From Sphingomonadaceae bacterium (lineage in GTDB: Bacteria > Chloroflexota > UBA6077): a stretch of 47,882 nt of DNA. Positions 6,406 through 38,791 of this stretch are shown here, piece by piece; within the stretch, counting starts at the first letter, position 1, and the number at the start of each line of letters is the position of its first letter. Below the pieces are notes generated by a model that saw nothing but the letters and a program-made list of their open reading frames with translations, was not told the origin of the DNA and made no database searches. The stretch is taken from assembly GCA_050261575.1 (NCBI GenBank), contig JBLNDL010000086.1, positions 1-47,882 of the forward strand, in the 5' to 3' direction. The translations under genes were made by a program, and so were the position numbers.

Positions 6406-6839
6406 CTGGCGGCCACCCCTTTCACGTCGAAGCTGCGCTCCAGCTTCTCGCCATCCGGCAGGGTGGCCAGGACCGTGAGGATCCAGTCCCCGCCCATCGT
6501 GAAGCGGAAGCCCTCGGTCTGGTAGCGACCCCCGCCGGTGTGCTTGGCCGCTGCCTGCACCGGCTTCATCCCAGCGTGGTTCATGTCGCCCCGCACCGAC
6601 ACCTCGGCACTCTCGATAGGCCTGCCCTGGGCGTCCCGGAGCAGCACTTCGATGGTGGCGGGTCCGACCGCCTTCTCCCCAACCGACTCCAGCTCCACCT
6701 GGGCGCCACCACCCCCTGCCGCGGCGGTCGTCCGCCCGCAGGCGGTGGCCATCAGCGCGAGCAGCACCATCGACACCAGCAGCAATGTGAGGGCGCCCCC
6801 TCGCTCAACGCGGGGCCATCGGCTCCGTGGAAAGGACAT
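6402..6839 (-). CDS. FixH/YtkA-like lipoprotein
   Basis: Lipobox ATAC; GDMNHAGMKP and FTMGGDW motifs; SD AGGAGGAGG before ATG 6839. Confidence 0.8.
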   Translation of the reverse strand: MSFPRSRWPRVERGGALTLLLVSMVLLALMATACGRTTAAAGGGGAQVELESVGEKAVGPATIEVLLRDAQGRPIESAEVSVRGDMNHAGMKPVQAAAKHTGGGRYQTEGFRFTMGGDWILTVLATLPDGEKLERSFDVKGVAAR

Positions 6840-7130
6840 CCTGCGGTACCTCCTCCTGAGGCTGGGCATCCCCCGCCCCGATCATCAACAACCACTTATG
6901 GGGCAAGAGGAGTGCCACCCGGGAGGTCCGCACGGGTATCTCCGGCTGCGCCGGTCGCCAGCAGTGCTCGATGGAACGGCAGGAGCGGATACAGAGGCCC
7001 GCCCCGGGGCGCAGAGACTGCGTGGCACCGTGCCCGCTCGCGTCACGAGCCCCACCCTACGCCGGAGATGCCCGCTCGGGCGATGGCCCTTCAGGCGCGA
7101 ACTGGGCCCAATCCACTCGGGGATACCCGC

Positions 7131-7655
7131 CTACAGCCCCCGGAGGATCTCCAGCAGCTCCTCGATGTCGGGCTGCTCGTTGCTGTCGTGGACGTCGATG
7201 AATGCGATGCGGCCCTCCTTGTCCACGATGAAGTTGGCCCGCTCGCTGTAGCCGTCGTCCCTGAGTACCCCGTACAGGCTGCACACCATCCCGTGGGGCC
7301 AGAAGTCCGAGGCCAGTGGGTAGCTGATCCCTCCCAGAGAGAGTGCCCAGTTCTTCAAGGCCGGCACGTGGTCGACGCTGATGCCGATGATGTCTGTGTC
7401 CAACTGGTCGAAGCGAGACTTGTCTACCTCCAACGAAGGCACCTCGACCGATCAAACTGGGGTGAAGGCCAGAGGGAAGAAGACGAGCAGCGCGTTCCGC
7501 TTGCCACGCAGGTCGGAGAGGGTGAAGTGGTTCGTGCTGCGGGCGCCGACGGTCCTCCCCAGGTGGGTGGGCAGGGTGAAATCGGGCGCCTCGTCGCCCA
7601 CAGCGAGGGTCACCGTCTCCATGGCTTTCTTCCTGCGGCCGATCGGGACAGACAT
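7131..7655 (-). CDS. AhpE-like peroxiredoxin (AhpC/TSA family) with in-frame UGA at the peroxidatic site; probable selenoprotein, 174 aa
   Basis: ORFs 7452..7715 and 7131..7442 share a frame; joined they read [10 protein letters not shown]...[18 protein letters not shown]...GISVD...LASDFWPHG...[15 protein letters not shown] at 7452-7454; SD AGAGGAGG before ATG 7655. Confidence 0.88.
7422..7448 (-). promoter_or_regulatory. Candidate bacterial SECIS element
   Basis: mRNA after UGA: UCG GUC GAGG UGCCUUC GUU GGAGGUA GAC; 7-bp upper stem with a G-containing loop starts 11 nt after UGA, plus a GUC/GAC lower stem. Confidence 0.7.
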
Positions 7656-7871
7656 GGGGAACCTCCTCTGGTCGATGGCGATGGCAGTTGAAGATCCCAG
7701 CACGTCTCGTACCACGGAGGCGGAGGGTCGCAGGGTCGGCGGACACGGCGACCCCGCCTGCGACGAACCAGCGGCAGGGGACGCCCCCGCCTACCCCCAA
7801 GAACGGGAGGGGGCGGGTCTGGGACCCGCCCCCCGGAGCTGCCGTGCAGGGCCGACCGGCCCTACGGTTCA

Positions 7872-9320
7872 CTAGATCCCGAAGGCCACGTGGAGCCACG
7901 GCAGGGCGAAGTAGACCACGAAGGCCAGGGAGGCGACGTACATCGCCCAGTGGAGGCTCTTGGCCTTGCCCTGCACGATCTTCAGGAAGGTGTAGGTGAT
8001 GAAACCGACGCCGATACCGTTGGTGATGCTGTAGGTGAAGGGCATCACGGCGATGGTCAGCAGCGCCGGCAGCCCCTCCTCCAAATCGCCGAAGGGGATG
8101 TCCTTGGCCACAGCGGCCATCAGGAAGCCCACGACGATCAGGGCAGGAGCCGTCGCGTGCGCCGGAACCACCCCGGCGACAGGGGAGAAGAACATGGCCG
8201 CCAGGAACAGGACACCGGTCACGACGGCGGTGAGCCCGGTCCGCCCGCCCTCGCTGACGCCCGCGGCGCTCTCGATGTAGGTGGTCGCGGAGCTCGTGCT
8301 GGCAGCACCGCCGAAGACCGCCGCCAGGGAGTCCACCAGCAGGATCCTGTTCAGCCGTGGCAGGCTACCCTTCTTGTCCAGCCAGCCGGCCTCACCGCCG
8401 ATGCCGATCACGGTCCCCATGGTGTCGAAGAAGTCCGACAGCATCAGGGAGAAGACAGTCAGGATGGCGGTCAGGAAACCCACCTTGGCGAAGATCTCGA
8501 AGCTGATGCCCTGGCCGACGATGGAGAGGTCTGGAAGGGCCACGATGGAGGATGGAATGACGGCCACACCCGGGGAGGCGAATGCCTTCCAGCCGCTGAG
8601 GCCGTTGATCACGATCGCCAGCACGGTGCTGGCCAGGATGCCGATCAGCAGGGCGCCCTTGACCCTCTTGGCCATCATCCAGATGATCAGGAAGAGGCCC
8701 ACGATCGCCACCAGGACGGGGCCAGAGGTCAGGTCGCCCAGCGCGACCGGGGTCGCCGGGTTCTTCGTGCCATACTTGATTAGCTCGCCGTCGGCGAGGC
8801 CGATGAAGAAGATGAAGAGACCAATGCCCACGCCGATGGCCTTCTTGAGGGTCATCGGTATGGCGTTCATCACCGCTTCGCGGAAGCCGGTCACCACCAG
8901 GAAGGTGATAGCGAGACCTTCCATAAAGATCACGCCCATGGCGGCCTGCCATGGGAGCTTCATCCCGACGATGAGCTGGAAGGCGACGACGGCGTTGAGC
9001 CCCATGCCCGGGGCCAGGGCGAAGGGATAGTTCGCGTAGACCCCCATGAAGATGGTCATGACTCCTGCGACGAGGCAGGTTGCCGCCATGACCGCAGGGA
9101 ACGCGGGACCGAGACCCTGGAGGTCCTGGATACCAGCGAAGGACAGGATCGAGGGATTAACGAAAATGATGTAGGCCATCACCATGAAGGTGGTGAGCCC
9201 CGCGACCAACTCGGTGCCCACGGTGCTGCCGCTGGCGCTGATGCCGAAGAAGCTATCGAGCCAGCCGCGGCTCCCGGCACCCTTGCCGGACATGTCTGCC
9301 GTGATGGATTGGTTTGCCAC
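7872..9320 (-). CDS. NCS2 family (AzgA/PbuG-like) purine permease
   Basis: ELVAGLTTFMVMAYIIFVNP, ANYPFALAPGMGLNA, DFFDTMGT, YIESAAGVSEGGRTGLT, MPFTYSITNGI; SD AGGAAGGGGAGG before GTG. Confidence 0.95.
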   Translation of the reverse strand: MANQSITADMSGKGAGSRGWLDSFFGISASGSTVGTELVAGLTTFMVMAYIIFVNPSILSFAGIQDLQGLGPAFPAVMAATCLVAGVMTIFMGVYANYPFALAPGMGLNAVVAFQLIVGMKLPWQAAMGVIFMEGLAITFLVVTGFREAVMNAIPMTLKKAIGVGIGLFIFFIGLADGELIKYGTKNPATPVALGDLTSGPVLVAIVGLFLIIWMMAKRVKGALLIGILASTVLAIVINGLSGWKAFASPGVAVIPSSIVALPDLSIVGQGISFEIFAKVGFLTAILTVFSLMLSDFFDTMGTVIGIGGEAGWLDKKGSLPRLNRILLVDSLAAVFGGAASTSSATTYIESAAGVSEGGRTGLTAVVTGVLFLAAMFFSPVAGVVPAHATAPALIVVGFLMAAVAKDIPFGDLEEGLPALLTIAVMPFTYSITNGIGVGFITYTFLKIVQGKAKSLHWAMYVASLAFVVYFALPWLHVAFGI

Positions 9321-9338
9321 AGCCTCCCCTTCCTTTTC

Positions 9339-9439
9339 TCAGGCGATTAACGCCCTGAAATGACCGAGCAGGCATCTCTAGGCGGAGTGCACACCTTTCC
9401 CGCCAGAGGAGTTGAGATGGACTGGAGATACCTGCTCAG
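9339..9439 (-). promoter_or_regulatory. Structured 5' leader of the NCS2 permease
   Basis: 15-bp stem CUGAGCAGGUAUCUC/GAGAUGCCUGCUCGG (9425-9439 with 9364-9378) enclosing GGCGGG/UCCGCC, then a UCAGG(G)CG/CGCCUGA hairpin next to the SD. Confidence 0.55.
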
Positions 9440-9514
9440 AGCCTAGGAAAACGGGCCCAGAAGACGGGGCGGGACCATGCGGGCCGCGCCGCCCGGAGCC
9501 GACCTCGCGCCACC

Positions 9515-9543
9515 AAGATGACACAGCCTAACCCTTATGTCAA
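9515..9543 (-). promoter_or_regulatory. Possible sigma70-type promoter P2 for NCS2
   Basis: TTGACA-N17-CATCTT with TG preceding the weak -10. Confidence 0.45.
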
Positions 9544-9552
9544 GCACCACCT

Positions 9553-9872
9553 CCTCGTGGCCCGCCGCCGACCTACCGATCCGGGCCGTTTGGCCGGGGG
9601 CGTCCACCCCCTCCAGGCCGTCGACCTCGCAGGAGCCGGCCGACACTCGGCGACGGAGTCCGCGGCTGGCCGCGGAGCTGCGAGCAACTTCCTTGGAGAC
9701 GAGGGCGGTTTCCTCTCCACCGGAACCCACGGGATGGGTTCCAGCAGAGGTCCCGGCCGACCCACTCTGGGCTGGCCGGATCCACGTGAAGGGGCAGCGA
9801 GGTTGGGCGCTGGGCAACGGCGGCCGGACAAGGGGCGGCCATCGCAGCCGCTGCTGACTGGCAAACCTCCAG
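9553..9872 (-). ncRNA. Candidate ~320-nt highly structured RNA (unknown family)
   Basis: Lies downstream of promoter P1; about ten nested, compatible helices found by eye, with G-U pairs that only work on the minus strand; no convincing ORF. Confidence 0.5.
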
Positions 9873-9877
9873 GCGAT

Positions 9878-9906
9878 AGTGTACAACCGGGGCCCCACCG
9901 TCGCAA
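9878..9906 (-). promoter_or_regulatory. Sigma70-type promoter P1
   Basis: TTGCGA-N17-TACACT on the minus strand. Confidence 0.65.
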
Positions 9907-10061
9907 GAGCCACCGGCTCACGGGCAATCAACTCAGCTTATGCGCCCCATAGAATCTCCATTGTTGACGGGGTTCTACCCCCATTCTAGAGTAGTCCGAC
10001 CCCTATGTCTGGAAGGTAGCCTGATGCGGCTATCAATCGTGCAGCCATATGGATGAAATGG

Positions 10062-10090
10062 TTGCCAGTTGTCCAGCTCACTGTTACTAT
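10062..10090 (+). promoter_or_regulatory. Sigma70-type promoter for tctCBA
   Basis: TTGCCA-N17-TACTAT with extended -10 TG. Confidence 0.65.
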
Positions 10091-10177
10091 GGCGCCGTTC
10101 GAGTGTAGGAGGTGCGGCCACAGGCAACCCGCGCCCAACCAGGGCGCGATCAACAGAAGAGGGAGGAGTGAGAACCC

Positions 10178-11152
10178 ATGCTGTCTAAGCGACTGTTGGT
10201 AGCACTGGCGATTCTCGTATCCCTGGCCGTGGTTGTCACTGCTGTCGCGGGATGCGGCAGCCTGGGTGGGGGAGAGAAGTTCCCCACCAAGCAGATAACC
10301 TACATGGTGACCTTCGACCCTGGAGGACAATCCGACCGGGAGGCTCGAAGGCAGCAGCCCCTCCTGGAGAAAGCCCTCGGACAGAAGGTGGTCATCGACT
10401 ACAAGGTTGGCGGCGGCGGCGCAATGGGTTGGGCCGAGGCCGCCCGAGGCAAGCCGGATGGCTACCAGGTCACCGGCATCAACATCCCGCACATCATCCT
10501 TCAGCCCATGCAGCAGGACGTTGGGTACAAGACCGAGCAGCTTCTACCCATCTCCTTGTTCCAGTCCACCCCTCAGGGGCTGATGGTCCTGAAGGACAGC
10601 CCCTACAAGGACCTCAAGAGCTTCGTGGACGAGGCGAAAAAGAACCCCGGCAAGCTTACCATCGGGGGCTCCGCCACCTGGTCCGGCTCCCACATAGCCA
10701 CCATGCGGCTAGAGAAGCTGACGGGCGCCAAGTTCGAGTACGTCCCCTTCACCGGTGCGGCCCCATCCGTTACTGCCTTCCTGGGCGGCCACGTCAACGC
10801 CCTGATGGCCAACTCCGACGACATCGTCAAGTACAAGGACCAGAGCATCCTGCTGGGCATCGCCGCCGAGGAGAGACTCCCCCAGATACCCGAAGGCAAG
10901 ACCTTCAAAGAGCAGGGGATCGACATGGTGGAGATCATCGCGCGAGGCGTCGCCGTGCCCGCCGGCACCCCTCAGAACGTGGTAGACGTCCTGGAGAAAG
11001 CCTTCATGGAGATCGCCAAGAACCCGGAGGTCGTCGAGGCGCAGAAGAAGGAAGGCTTCGTCCCCATCGCCATGAACAGCAAGGAGTCGAAGGCCTACAT
11101 CGAGAAGTTGATCCCGATCTACAAGGAGATCACCGCCGGGCTGAAGAAGTGA
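10178..11152 (+). CDS. tctC: Tripartite tricarboxylate transporter substrate-binding lipoprotein (Bug/TctC)
   Basis: Lipobox VAGC; FDPGGQSD, GGGGAMG, KPDGY, YVPFTGAA, LGGHV, RGVAVPAGTP. Confidence 0.93.
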   Translation: MLSKRLLVALAILVSLAVVVTAVAGCGSLGGGEKFPTKQITYMVTFDPGGQSDREARRQQPLLEKALGQKVVIDYKVGGGGAMGWAEAARGKPDGYQVTGINIPHIILQPMQQDVGYKTEQLLPISLFQSTPQGLMVLKDSPYKDLKSFVDEAKKNPGKLTIGGSATWSGSHIATMRLEKLTGAKFEYVPFTGAAPSVTAFLGGHVNALMANSDDIVKYKDQSILLGIAAEERLPQIPEGKTFKEQGIDMVEIIARGVAVPAGTPQNVVDVLEKAFMEIAKNPEVVEAQKKEGFVPIAMNSKESKAYIEKLIPIYKEITAGLKK

Positions 11153-38457: not shown

Positions 38458-38736
38458 CGCGCCGACGAGGAACTGGCCCGCACCAACTGGCTCGTAAAGG
38501 GCGAGTACTCCGTCTTCCTGGAAAGCTGGTGCCCTGCCGACGATGGGAACGAGGTGATCAACATCGGCATCACCGAGCCGTCGGTGGTGCGGGCCTCACG
38601 CACCTGGTTCCTGGAGATCTGGCAGGGGCTGGGCCGCCAGAGCTGGGACAAGCGCACTGTGCAGCAGTGGCTCAGCCGCCAGGTCGATGAGTTGCAGAGC
38701 CGCGTCGACGGGGACCACGCAGGTATCTCCAGATAG
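38458..38736 (+). pseudogene. Probable 3' remnant of an unidentified gene
   Basis: Protein-like stretch EELARTNWLVKGEYSVFLESW...INIGITEPSVVRASRTWFLEIWQGL...DKRTVQQWLSRQVDEL with coding-like GC3; upstream sequence in this frame looks non-coding and has no suitable start. Confidence 0.4.
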
Positions 38737-38791
38737 AGTGCACGCACCCCGCTAGAGAAGCTCACCTGGACTGGGGACACCTGCTTGGGGG

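Follow-up and report, generated by a model that had tools for sequence, protein, structure and literature searches.

A structured RNA element upstream of an AzgA-type purine permease gene in one family of Chloroflexota, a candidate cis-regulatory leader

Purine transporter genes, including those of NCS2/AzgA-type permeases in Firmicutes, can be preceded by the purine riboswitch. Its aptamer, ~70 nt long, forms a three-way junction in which bases of the junction and the loops are conserved. Further candidate sensors of the purine pathway upstream of transport or salvage genes are the xanthine/NMT1, ZTP/pfl, ykkC-type (phosphoribosyl pyrophosphate, PRPP, and guanosine tetraphosphate, ppGpp) and 2'-deoxyguanosine (2'-dG) classes. 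6S RNA is broadly present across phylogeny and has the shape of a long, irregular rod that opens into a large bubble at its centre. The element described here is a GC-rich RNA of ~250-330 nt on the minus strand, which lies upstream of a purine permease gene in a window of 47,882 nt, the whole stretch of DNA that was analysed (contig C86 of the 3.72-Mb Chloroflexota genome G000, 66.5% GC). It is located in an 857-nt intergenic gap between the open reading frame (ORF) of the permease and the tctC-tctB-tctA operon, which is encoded on the plus strand and begins at 10178.

An earlier note, made from the letters of this DNA, had proposed a ~320-nt RNA with its own promoter, closed by nested helices into a single fold, and had interpreted it as an undescribed non-coding RNA or a purine-related cis-regulator. 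The observation is partly confirmed and the interpretation partly supported by the analysis presented here. The element is read as a structured leader at the 5' end of the permease mRNA, where it would be a lineage-specific regulatory RNA acting in cis and a candidate riboswitch; we assign this reading a probability of about 0.5. It accounts for the 857-nt gap in the annotation, and the comparison of homologues indicates which of the predicted helices deserve trust. In the following, P1 and P2 designate a promoter and a promoter-like site, and are distinct from the "P1 stem", which is the basal stem of the central domain.

Distribution and linkage to the permease gene

A DNA search detected the core of the element in G004 and G002, two members of a related genus, with ~70% identity and in the same gap between tctC and the permease gene. 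Two covariance models were used, R1 for the central domain and R2, a second model built from all five sequences. Both gave exactly one match per genome in all five genomes of family f1, which are the window genome and its relatives G001, G002, G003 and G004; the scores were 102.7, 110.7, 110.1, 90.9 and 50.6 bits for R1 and 85.5-111.2 bits for R2. No match to R1 or R2 was obtained in 34 genomes from six other families of the order. Within the class (66 genomes, five of them carriers), R1 produced only two weak extra matches, the element not being found in the other 61 genomes, and in a sample of the phylum 2 of 151 genomes matched, both of which belong to f1. Weak matches in G050 (R1, E 0.011), G047 (R1, E 0.055) and G060 (R2, E 0.011) lie inside long ORFs and are specific to one model; they were rejected. 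A two-motif scan of genome contigs returned three matches, all of them known relatives, and a looser version returned 38 loci, of which only the four known relatives scored strongly with R1, two more reaching E 0.035 and 0.087. A 16-mer scan of genome contigs (GTDB representatives) yielded at least 119 stretches, which among the matches listed are due to chance except for the known relatives, and the three matches of a metagenome contig scan lie in apparent coding sequence without the flanking features and were also judged to be chance. On the evidence of these sequence searches, the element is real, single-copy and confined to one Chloroflexota family among the genomes searched.

The predicted linkage to an NCS2/AzgA-type permease holds in all five carrier genomes, where the element lies upstream of and on the same strand as the same permease gene, which starts with GTG-GCA-AAY-CA. 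The other flank is variable: the upstream neighbour is a divergent tctC in the window, G004 and G002, a tRNA-Gln gene with a type I restriction fragment in G001 and an ORF in G003. Among solved chains, those of AZG2 and AZG1, adenine/guanine permeases of plants, are nearest to the permease (E 4.5e-53), and NCBIfam has no family for it; the purine-permease label appears reasonable. A match to the permease is found in 22 of 39 genomes of the order, a tally which includes G037, an unpublished genome that contributes to no other result. At 14 orthologous permease loci, no match to R1 with filters off (best E 0.44) and no match to Rfam was found, and six orthologous permeases from other families (58-64% identity) have short, unrelated upstream regions without the box motif described below.

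As the earlier note had assumed, the element is non-coding. Its GC content is flat at ~0.7 at all three codon positions, compared with a GC content at third positions (GC3) of 0.85-0.89 in the flanking genes, and indels between homologues are not multiples of three. ORFs of 89-162 amino acids are present on both strands and show no codon-position GC signal; the start codon (ATG) of the 89-amino-acid ORF is located inside a segment that is absent from G004 and G002, and the protein-coding reading was rejected. The same applies to a reading as a repeat or mobile element, since the RNA part is unique in its own genome, in which only 9364-9441 is repeated.

Fold of the RNA and its central domain

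The best conserved part of the RNA is a central domain composed of the P1 stem, a helix with internal loops and capping hairpins (Table 1). The strands of the helix, UUCCAAGGAAGUUGCUC and GAGGUCAAC(G/A)GCCUGGA, are essentially invariant over the five genomes, and its irregularities are a bulged A, an AA/GG internal loop (AA/AG in G003) and a GU bulge. Of the 17 pairs of this central helix, 13 are invariant and three have changed on both sides, and 98.8% of the cells are paired in the five sequences. In the full model of 27 pairs, 91.8% of the cells are paired, compared with 25-53% when the partners are slid. The P1 stem, on the other hand, is built from different letters in all five homologues, namely CCGCCCU/GGGGUGG, GCCUCG/CGAGGU, UACCGC/GUGGUA, GCCUCU/AGAGGC and the interrupted GACU.CCCGU/AUGG.UGGUC. 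The central helix of the window contains a U-G pair where the relatives have U-A, and together with the G-U pairs of the P1 stem and of hairpin H3 this fits an RNA on the minus strand. The fold recurs in all five genomes, a sample too small for statistics on covariation; double changes are found in 6 of the 27 pairs, a number that 28 of 500 shuffles reach as well.

In all five homologues, the ~112-nt central domain folds better than shuffled controls in the sense direction (z-scores of -1.71, -2.73, -3.63, -3.36 and -3.77); the antisense values are +0.38, -2.44, -2.23, -0.44 and -4.33. The mean pair probability of the central helix in full-length leaders is 0.76-0.94. For the whole RNA, RNAfold gives -181.6 kcal/mol for 9540-9880(-), with a z-score of -2.21 and 3 of 100 shuffles folding as well, and a z-score of -0.12 for the plus strand of the same region, which is in line with the strand preference that had been deduced from the G-U pairs. 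Across the homologues, the whole-RNA z-scores are -1.77, -1.46, -0.20 (G002), -0.64 (G001) and -2.95, and sense and antisense are not convincingly separated. The caveat that high GC inflates chance pairing was therefore justified by this range of only -0.20 to -2.95: a comparison with shuffled sequences supports the central domain and leaves the whole RNA not clearly better than its controls. The thermodynamics of the whole RNA alone is weak evidence, and conservation decides.

The promoter TTGCGA-N17-TACACT and every helix strand quoted in the earlier note are present with the letters and positions given there, and the fate of the helices differs. The minimum free energy (MFE) structure contains the two outermost helices, the 16-bp hairpin H3, CCGCCCU..CUCCA/UGGAG..GGGGUGG and CUCGCAG/CUGCGAG with the inner UCCGCGG/CCGCGGA; the long-range helices GAUCCGGCC/GGCCCGGAUC and GGCCGGG/CCCGGCC lose to a local hairpin, H2, in which CCGGCC..GGCCGG (9779-9753) folds in their place. 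H3, CCGCCCU..CUCCA/UGGAG..GGGGUGG and CUCGCAG/CUGCGAG with its inner hairpin are also conserved in the relatives, and the two outermost helices are not. The latter are specific to the window genome because their 5' strands (9813-9833) are located in the variable 5' extension, a segment (9808-9870) without counterpart in the relatives; the equivalent of their 3'-tail strand (..AGCGGCG..) forms a local hairpin in G004, G002, G001 and G003. The proposal of a single closed, nested fold of ~320 nt is therefore not supported, as its closing helices are genome-specific and two long-range helices are replaced by a conserved local hairpin. H2 is degenerate in G002, and H3 persists in G004 and G002 despite many substitutions. 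The variable 5' part is also reflected in the distance between P1 and the core, which ranges from 142 to 210 nt across the five genomes.

These observations bear on the question whether the region acts as RNA at all. The conserved stretch could be a DNA promoter or operator region in which pairing arises by chance from the GC content. The weak or missing advantage of the whole-region fold over shuffles at a GC content that inflates pairing would be in keeping with this, as would the fact that only close relatives are available for comparison. However, the central-domain z-scores are between -1.7 and -3.8 in all five genomes, the P1 stem and hairpins are formed by different letters from genome to genome, and the domain persists in G003, at 59% GC, in the midst of diverged surroundings. 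Furthermore, the invariant arms form an imperfect inverted repeat ~54 nt apart that contains bulges and a U-G pair, as would suit an RNA better than a DNA operator. A purely DNA-based function is thus considered very unlikely.

A different explanation is suggested by the invariance itself. The helix might be a binding or cleavage site within the leader for a protein, such as an RNA-binding regulator or RNase III, which would control stability or translation of the mRNA. Indeed, both strands are invariant in 13 of 17 pairs of the ~19-bp helix, and the flanking stems changed freely, a pattern that seems more typical of sequence-specific helix recognition than of a junction aptamer. However, no gene for an RNA-binding protein is linked to the element, the downstream ORF being peroxiredoxin-like by eye, and a switch, in which each strand would have a second partner, is just as likely to produce invariance. 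Recognition by a protein is regarded as distinctly unlikely.

Promoters, the conserved box and the leader reading

The claim that the RNA has its own promoter is supported by the conservation of P1 in all five genomes, with the consensus CTTGCGA (or GCGG, GCTA), N17, TA(C/A)ACT, from which transcription may start near 9871. A second conserved site follows the RNA. This box of 20 nt consists of GGAGGU, four variable bases and CUUGACAUAA, and can be read in two ways. As RNA, it contains a perfect Shine-Dalgarno (SD) sequence, GGAGGU, a 5-nt spacer (the four variable bases and a conserved C) and a two-codon ORF with stop, UUG-ACA-UAA (9535-9543). As DNA, it contains a perfect -35 hexamer, TTGACA, at 9538-9543, which is followed 17-18 nt on by TGn and (C/G)ATnnT in all four genomes with the box, thereby forming the promoter-like site P2. 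The spacer that varies between the invariant GGAGGU and the invariant remainder favours the SD reading; the extended -10 element, which is kept although the P2 spacer has diverged, favours the promoter reading. Both appear equally good and may coexist. The motif GGAGG...UUG-ACA-UAA that the earlier note had pointed out is conserved in four of five genomes, and a second promoter (TTGACA with an extended -10) explains it no less well. G004 lacks the box and ~110 nt after it, and since it has no P2 box, P1 is its sole conserved promoter-like site before the permease gene. The leader part downstream of the box spans 89-214 nt to the purine-rich ribosome binding site (RBS) and GTG start of the permease; in the box-less G004, the corresponding distance is ~135 nt.

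Traces of transcription were looked for in RNA libraries, which comprised three small soil metatranscriptome runs whose contigs give no strand, ends or level. Near-identical contigs from soil metatranscriptomes of two studies cover 9705-9853 (0 differences), which is inside the RNA, 9312-9482 (one difference; leader and gene start) and 9111-9270 (gene). The rest of 8900-10300 is without contig cover, which is not informative. These contigs are weak evidence of transcription, as the strand is ambiguous and carry-over of DNA is possible.

The presence of two promoter-like sites gives rise to the main rival of the leader reading. The P1 transcript could be an independent small RNA (sRNA) of ~250-330 nt that ends before the box by processing or at a non-canonical or Rho-dependent stop, while the permease is expressed from P2; it would act in trans or bind a protein, and its adjacency to the permease would be inherited synteny. 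The promoter conserved in all five genomes is compatible with this, and so is the P2-like TTGACA, N17-18, TGn-nATnnT directly after the RNA in four of five genomes. A GC-rich hairpin precedes the box in G002, G001 and G003 and occupies the equivalent place in G004, and one metatranscriptome contig (9705-9853) is confined to the inside of the RNA. However, a terminator scan found no terminator-like site between RNA and permease in the window, G003 or G004, and in G002 and G001 few U residues follow the 3' hairpins. Furthermore, G004 has no P2, which would leave its permease without a conserved promoter of its own, and the RNA has stayed with the permease while the other flank changed three times. 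An independent sRNA is conceivable but on balance somewhat unlikely.

The same observations are the reason why a cis-acting leader is favoured: the RNA remains with the permease gene, no terminator-like site separates them, G004 has no other conserved promoter, and the 5' strand has alternative purine-rich partners of near-native energy, the last point being suggestive only. The leader would work as follows. Transcription would start at P1, and the RNA would fold into the variable 5' part, H2, H3 and the central domain. The invariant helix with its bulged A, AA/GG loop and GU bulge would provide the sensor surface, presumably for a purine-related metabolite and less likely for a protein. An alternative partner for the 5' strand of the P1 stem and lower helix, which is rich in pyrimidines (..CCUC..UUCC..), could be a purine-rich, SD-like stretch downstream, either the GGAGGU box or, in the box-less G004, the permease RBS. 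Whether the central domain forms or is lost would in this way alter the access of ribosomes and the expression of the permease, and P2, inside the leader, could give rise to a short transcript that is unregulated or separately regulated. The calculated energies of the 5' strand with the box region are -18.6 (window), -19.4 (G002) and -16.6 (G001) kcal/mol, against -22.0, -18.0 and -17.2 kcal/mol for its native pairing in the same genomes; in G004, pairing with the permease RBS gives -21.3 against a native -21.4 kcal/mol, all of these being raw duplex energies. The central helix dominates the ensemble (0.76-0.94) alongside competing duplexes of near-native energy in four of five genomes. These alternative pairings are suggestive only, and the strands concerned are generically complementary.

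Several points weigh against the leader reading. The P2-like site between RNA and gene in four of five genomes means that the permease may not depend on P1. No canonical expression platform and no terminator/antiterminator pair was found. The alternative pairings join generic pyrimidine-rich and SD-like stretches, and the box of G003 is not among the five best partners of its 5' strand. The whole-RNA fold is not clearly better than shuffles in G002 (-0.20) and G001 (-0.64). Only five related genomes carry the element, and the covariation among them is thin (6 of 27 pairs, as in 28 of 500 shuffles); the most conserved helix is invariant, which leaves pairing neither supported nor contradicted. 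The range of known riboswitch classes is usually much wider. The ligand role is a proposal; the purine riboswitch model RF00167, which matches none of the 39 genomes of the order, provides no precedent for it and no contrast.

It is possible to take the leader reading further and to propose a new riboswitch class of this Chloroflexota family, with its pocket in the invariant internal-loop helix, a purine-pathway ligand and an unusual expression platform, in which the pyrimidine strand of the aptamer would compete for the SD sequence of the two-codon start-stop ORF (GGAGGU-N5-UUG-ACA-UAA) overprinted on the -35 box. The expression of the permease would then be set by ribosomes loading at the mini-ORF or, in the box-less genome, directly at the RBS of the permease gene. 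Such a class is unlikely as things stand.

The leader contains further features of interest (Table 1). A small GC hairpin at 9339-9358(-) lies directly 5' of the permease RBS, and a hairpin with different letters is present at the same place in all five genomes. G004 and G002 share, upstream of the RBS, a conserved tract that is rich in C and U and poor in G, CUGUUCUCCGU.UUUCUU (L009 ~1765-1790 and the equivalent in L010(-); window 9442-9466). It pairs with the RBS in the predicted short-leader fold and could be an anti-SD or Rho-loading stretch. The predicted unpaired fraction of the RBS, 0.25-0.49 in P1 leaders and 0.28-0.59 in P2 leaders, shows no difference and is uninformative. The leader of the window genome has furthermore acquired a copy of a repeat resembling miniature inverted-repeat transposable elements (MITE-like), which has terminal inverted repeats of ~18 nt, a second copy in the window at 38713-38785 and no match in Rfam; its own genome contains 124 BLAST hits, and 109 of these are copies that measure 55 nt or more.

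In the neighbourhood, a promoter-like site at 10062-10090(+), TTGCCA-17-TACTAT with an upstream TG, precedes tctC, and its surroundings are conserved with G004. Downstream of the permease, the ORF 7131-7442(-) has a coding-type GC3 of 0.90 and is peroxiredoxin-like, as judged by eye from the translation. The longer ORFs overlapping it, 7057-7899(-) and 6540-7691(+), have no Pfam match and a GC3 of only 0.52 and 0.63; their GC content peaks at codon position 1, without the GC3 peak of real genes.

Table 1. Features of the element, its leader and the permease gene, in window coordinates.
Feature	Position	Strand	Basis and remarks
P1 -35 hexamer TTGCGA	9901..9906	-	letters; block CTTGCGA/CTTGCGG/CTTGCTA in 5/5 genomes
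P1 -10 hexamer TACACT, 17-nt spacer	9878..9883	-	TACACT in window, G004 and G002; TAAACT in G001 and G003, equal spacing
Variable 5' extension with two small hairpins	9808..9870	-	gap in G004/G002, unalignable in G001/G003; single copy in own genome
Conserved 5' segment CCCAACCUCGCUGCC...	9781..9807	-	aligned with G004 and G002
Hairpin H2, CCGGCC..GGCCGG around GCCCA/UGGGU	9753..9779	-	MFE; comparable local hairpins in G004, G003 and G001
Hairpin H3, 16 bp, four G-U pairs	9715..9749	-	MFE; kept in G004/G002, shorter in G003/G001
Central domain, ~105 nt	9604..9708	-	covariance models R1/R2, pair counts, fold z-scores, pair probability
P1 stem of central domain	9702-9708 with 9604-9610	-	folds of five homologues
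Sequence-invariant helix with internal loops	9682-9698 and 9611-9628	-	alignment, pair counts
Capping hairpins A and B	A ~9659-9676, B ~9634-9655	-	folds; one long hairpin instead in G001
GC-rich 3' tail, small GGCC/GGCC hairpin and CGGCGGC strand pairing with 5' extension	9555..9603	-	folds
Conserved box GGAGGUGGUGCUUGACAUAA	9535..9554	-	in 4/5 genomes, deleted in G004; unique in own genome
P2 extended -10 candidate TG-T-CATCTT	9515..9523	-	TGn(C/G)ATnnT in four box genomes; below consensus-scan threshold
GC hairpin GGGCGG..CCGCCC, then U/C-rich GUCUUCU	9459..9494	-	common to G002, deleted in G004; fails terminator criteria
Inserted MITE-like repeat copy, 73 nt	9364..9441	-	absent from four relatives
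Pre-RBS hairpin (9339-9358), purine-rich RBS (9323-9334) and GTG start (9318-9320)	9318..9358	-	letters, alignment
Permease gene, AzgA-type (NCS2), adenine/guanine/hypoxanthine-type	7872..9320	-	PF00860, E 6e-33; 482-aa ORF

Comparison with known RNAs

The earlier note had seen no sign of a known family, and the search of Rfam 15 agrees with this. Its 4227 models, which include ZTP, ykkC, NMT1, T-box, signal recognition particle (SRP) RNA, RNase P RNA, transfer-messenger RNA (tmRNA) and 6S RNA, did not reach their gathering scores anywhere in the window. At E<=10, four chance-level matches were obtained in 9200-10300, none of which is a bacterial family; the best is a model of a fly long non-coding RNA, with 18.6 bits against a threshold of 50.

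Housekeeping RNAs deserve separate consideration. SRP RNA, RNase P RNA and tmRNA were found on other contigs of the window genome, where RF00013 detects no 6S RNA anywhere. The element could therefore be a divergent housekeeping RNA, most plausibly a 6S RNA beyond detection by Rfam, and it resembles 6S RNA in being single-copy, having its own promoter and measuring a few hundred nt, a size of the right order. However, its fold is branched and has several hairpins around the central domain instead of a rod with a central bubble. The element is also narrowly distributed: it was found in 5 of 66 class genomes and not in the other 61, in which a housekeeping RNA should have left wider traces. In addition, RF00013 has no match in 9200-10300 even at E<=10. 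A 6S identity thus seems most improbable. The RNase P RNA match of the window genome (C20:47014-47300) reaches 75.3 bits, below the RF00010 cut-off of 100, and covers 287 nt of the 367-position model; this RNA may be divergent or truncated.

The closest likeness in role is to the purine riboswitch RF00167. The element is also a structured RNA in leader position, on the same strand as a purine transporter gene downstream. In contrast to that riboswitch, it measures 250-330 nt, it has as its conserved core an invariant, ~19-bp helix interrupted by internal loops, and it does not match the model, even at E<=10 in 9200-10300. RF00167 was detected in none of the 39 genomes of the order, while the control genomes of B. 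subtilis and L. lactis do match. The likeness to the xanthine/NMT1, ZTP/pfl, ykkC-type and 2'-dG classes is one of role alone, as the element shares no sequence signature with them and none of them is among the four matches at E<=10 in 9200-10300. A further likeness exists to switches in which a leader mini-ORF is combined with sequestration of an SD sequence: the box has a strong SD (GGAGGU), SD and ORF are invariant, and the SD can be paired by a pyrimidine strand that lies upstream. Unlike in these switches, the ORF has an unusual length of two codons, the same letters form a perfect -35 with an extended -10, and the box is dispensable in G004.

If the element is a regulator, it would represent an undescribed RNA family that controls purine uptake in a poorly studied and largely uncultured Chloroflexota lineage, and it would act in an order of which 39 genomes yielded no match to the classical purine riboswitch. 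Its architecture would be unusual, with an invariant internal-loop helix in place of a junction as the core and, following it, a box that can be read as SD/mini-ORF or as promoter. Given five species-level genomes and a narrow range, the element stays a candidate.

Full-text literature searches returned no such element among their listed entries. The orphan motifs listed in surveys of 104 and 224 candidates (PMC2864571, PMC5737381) are similar in kind, being conserved intergenic structures associated with one gene class; those that are included in Rfam 15 do not match the element, which in turn is limited to one family and five species-level genomes. Taken together, the element appears to be an undescribed family within a known kind, the structured leader RNAs, in which it is unusual in two respects: its core is a helix with internal loops that does not vary, and its box is readable both as SD/mini-ORF and as promoter.

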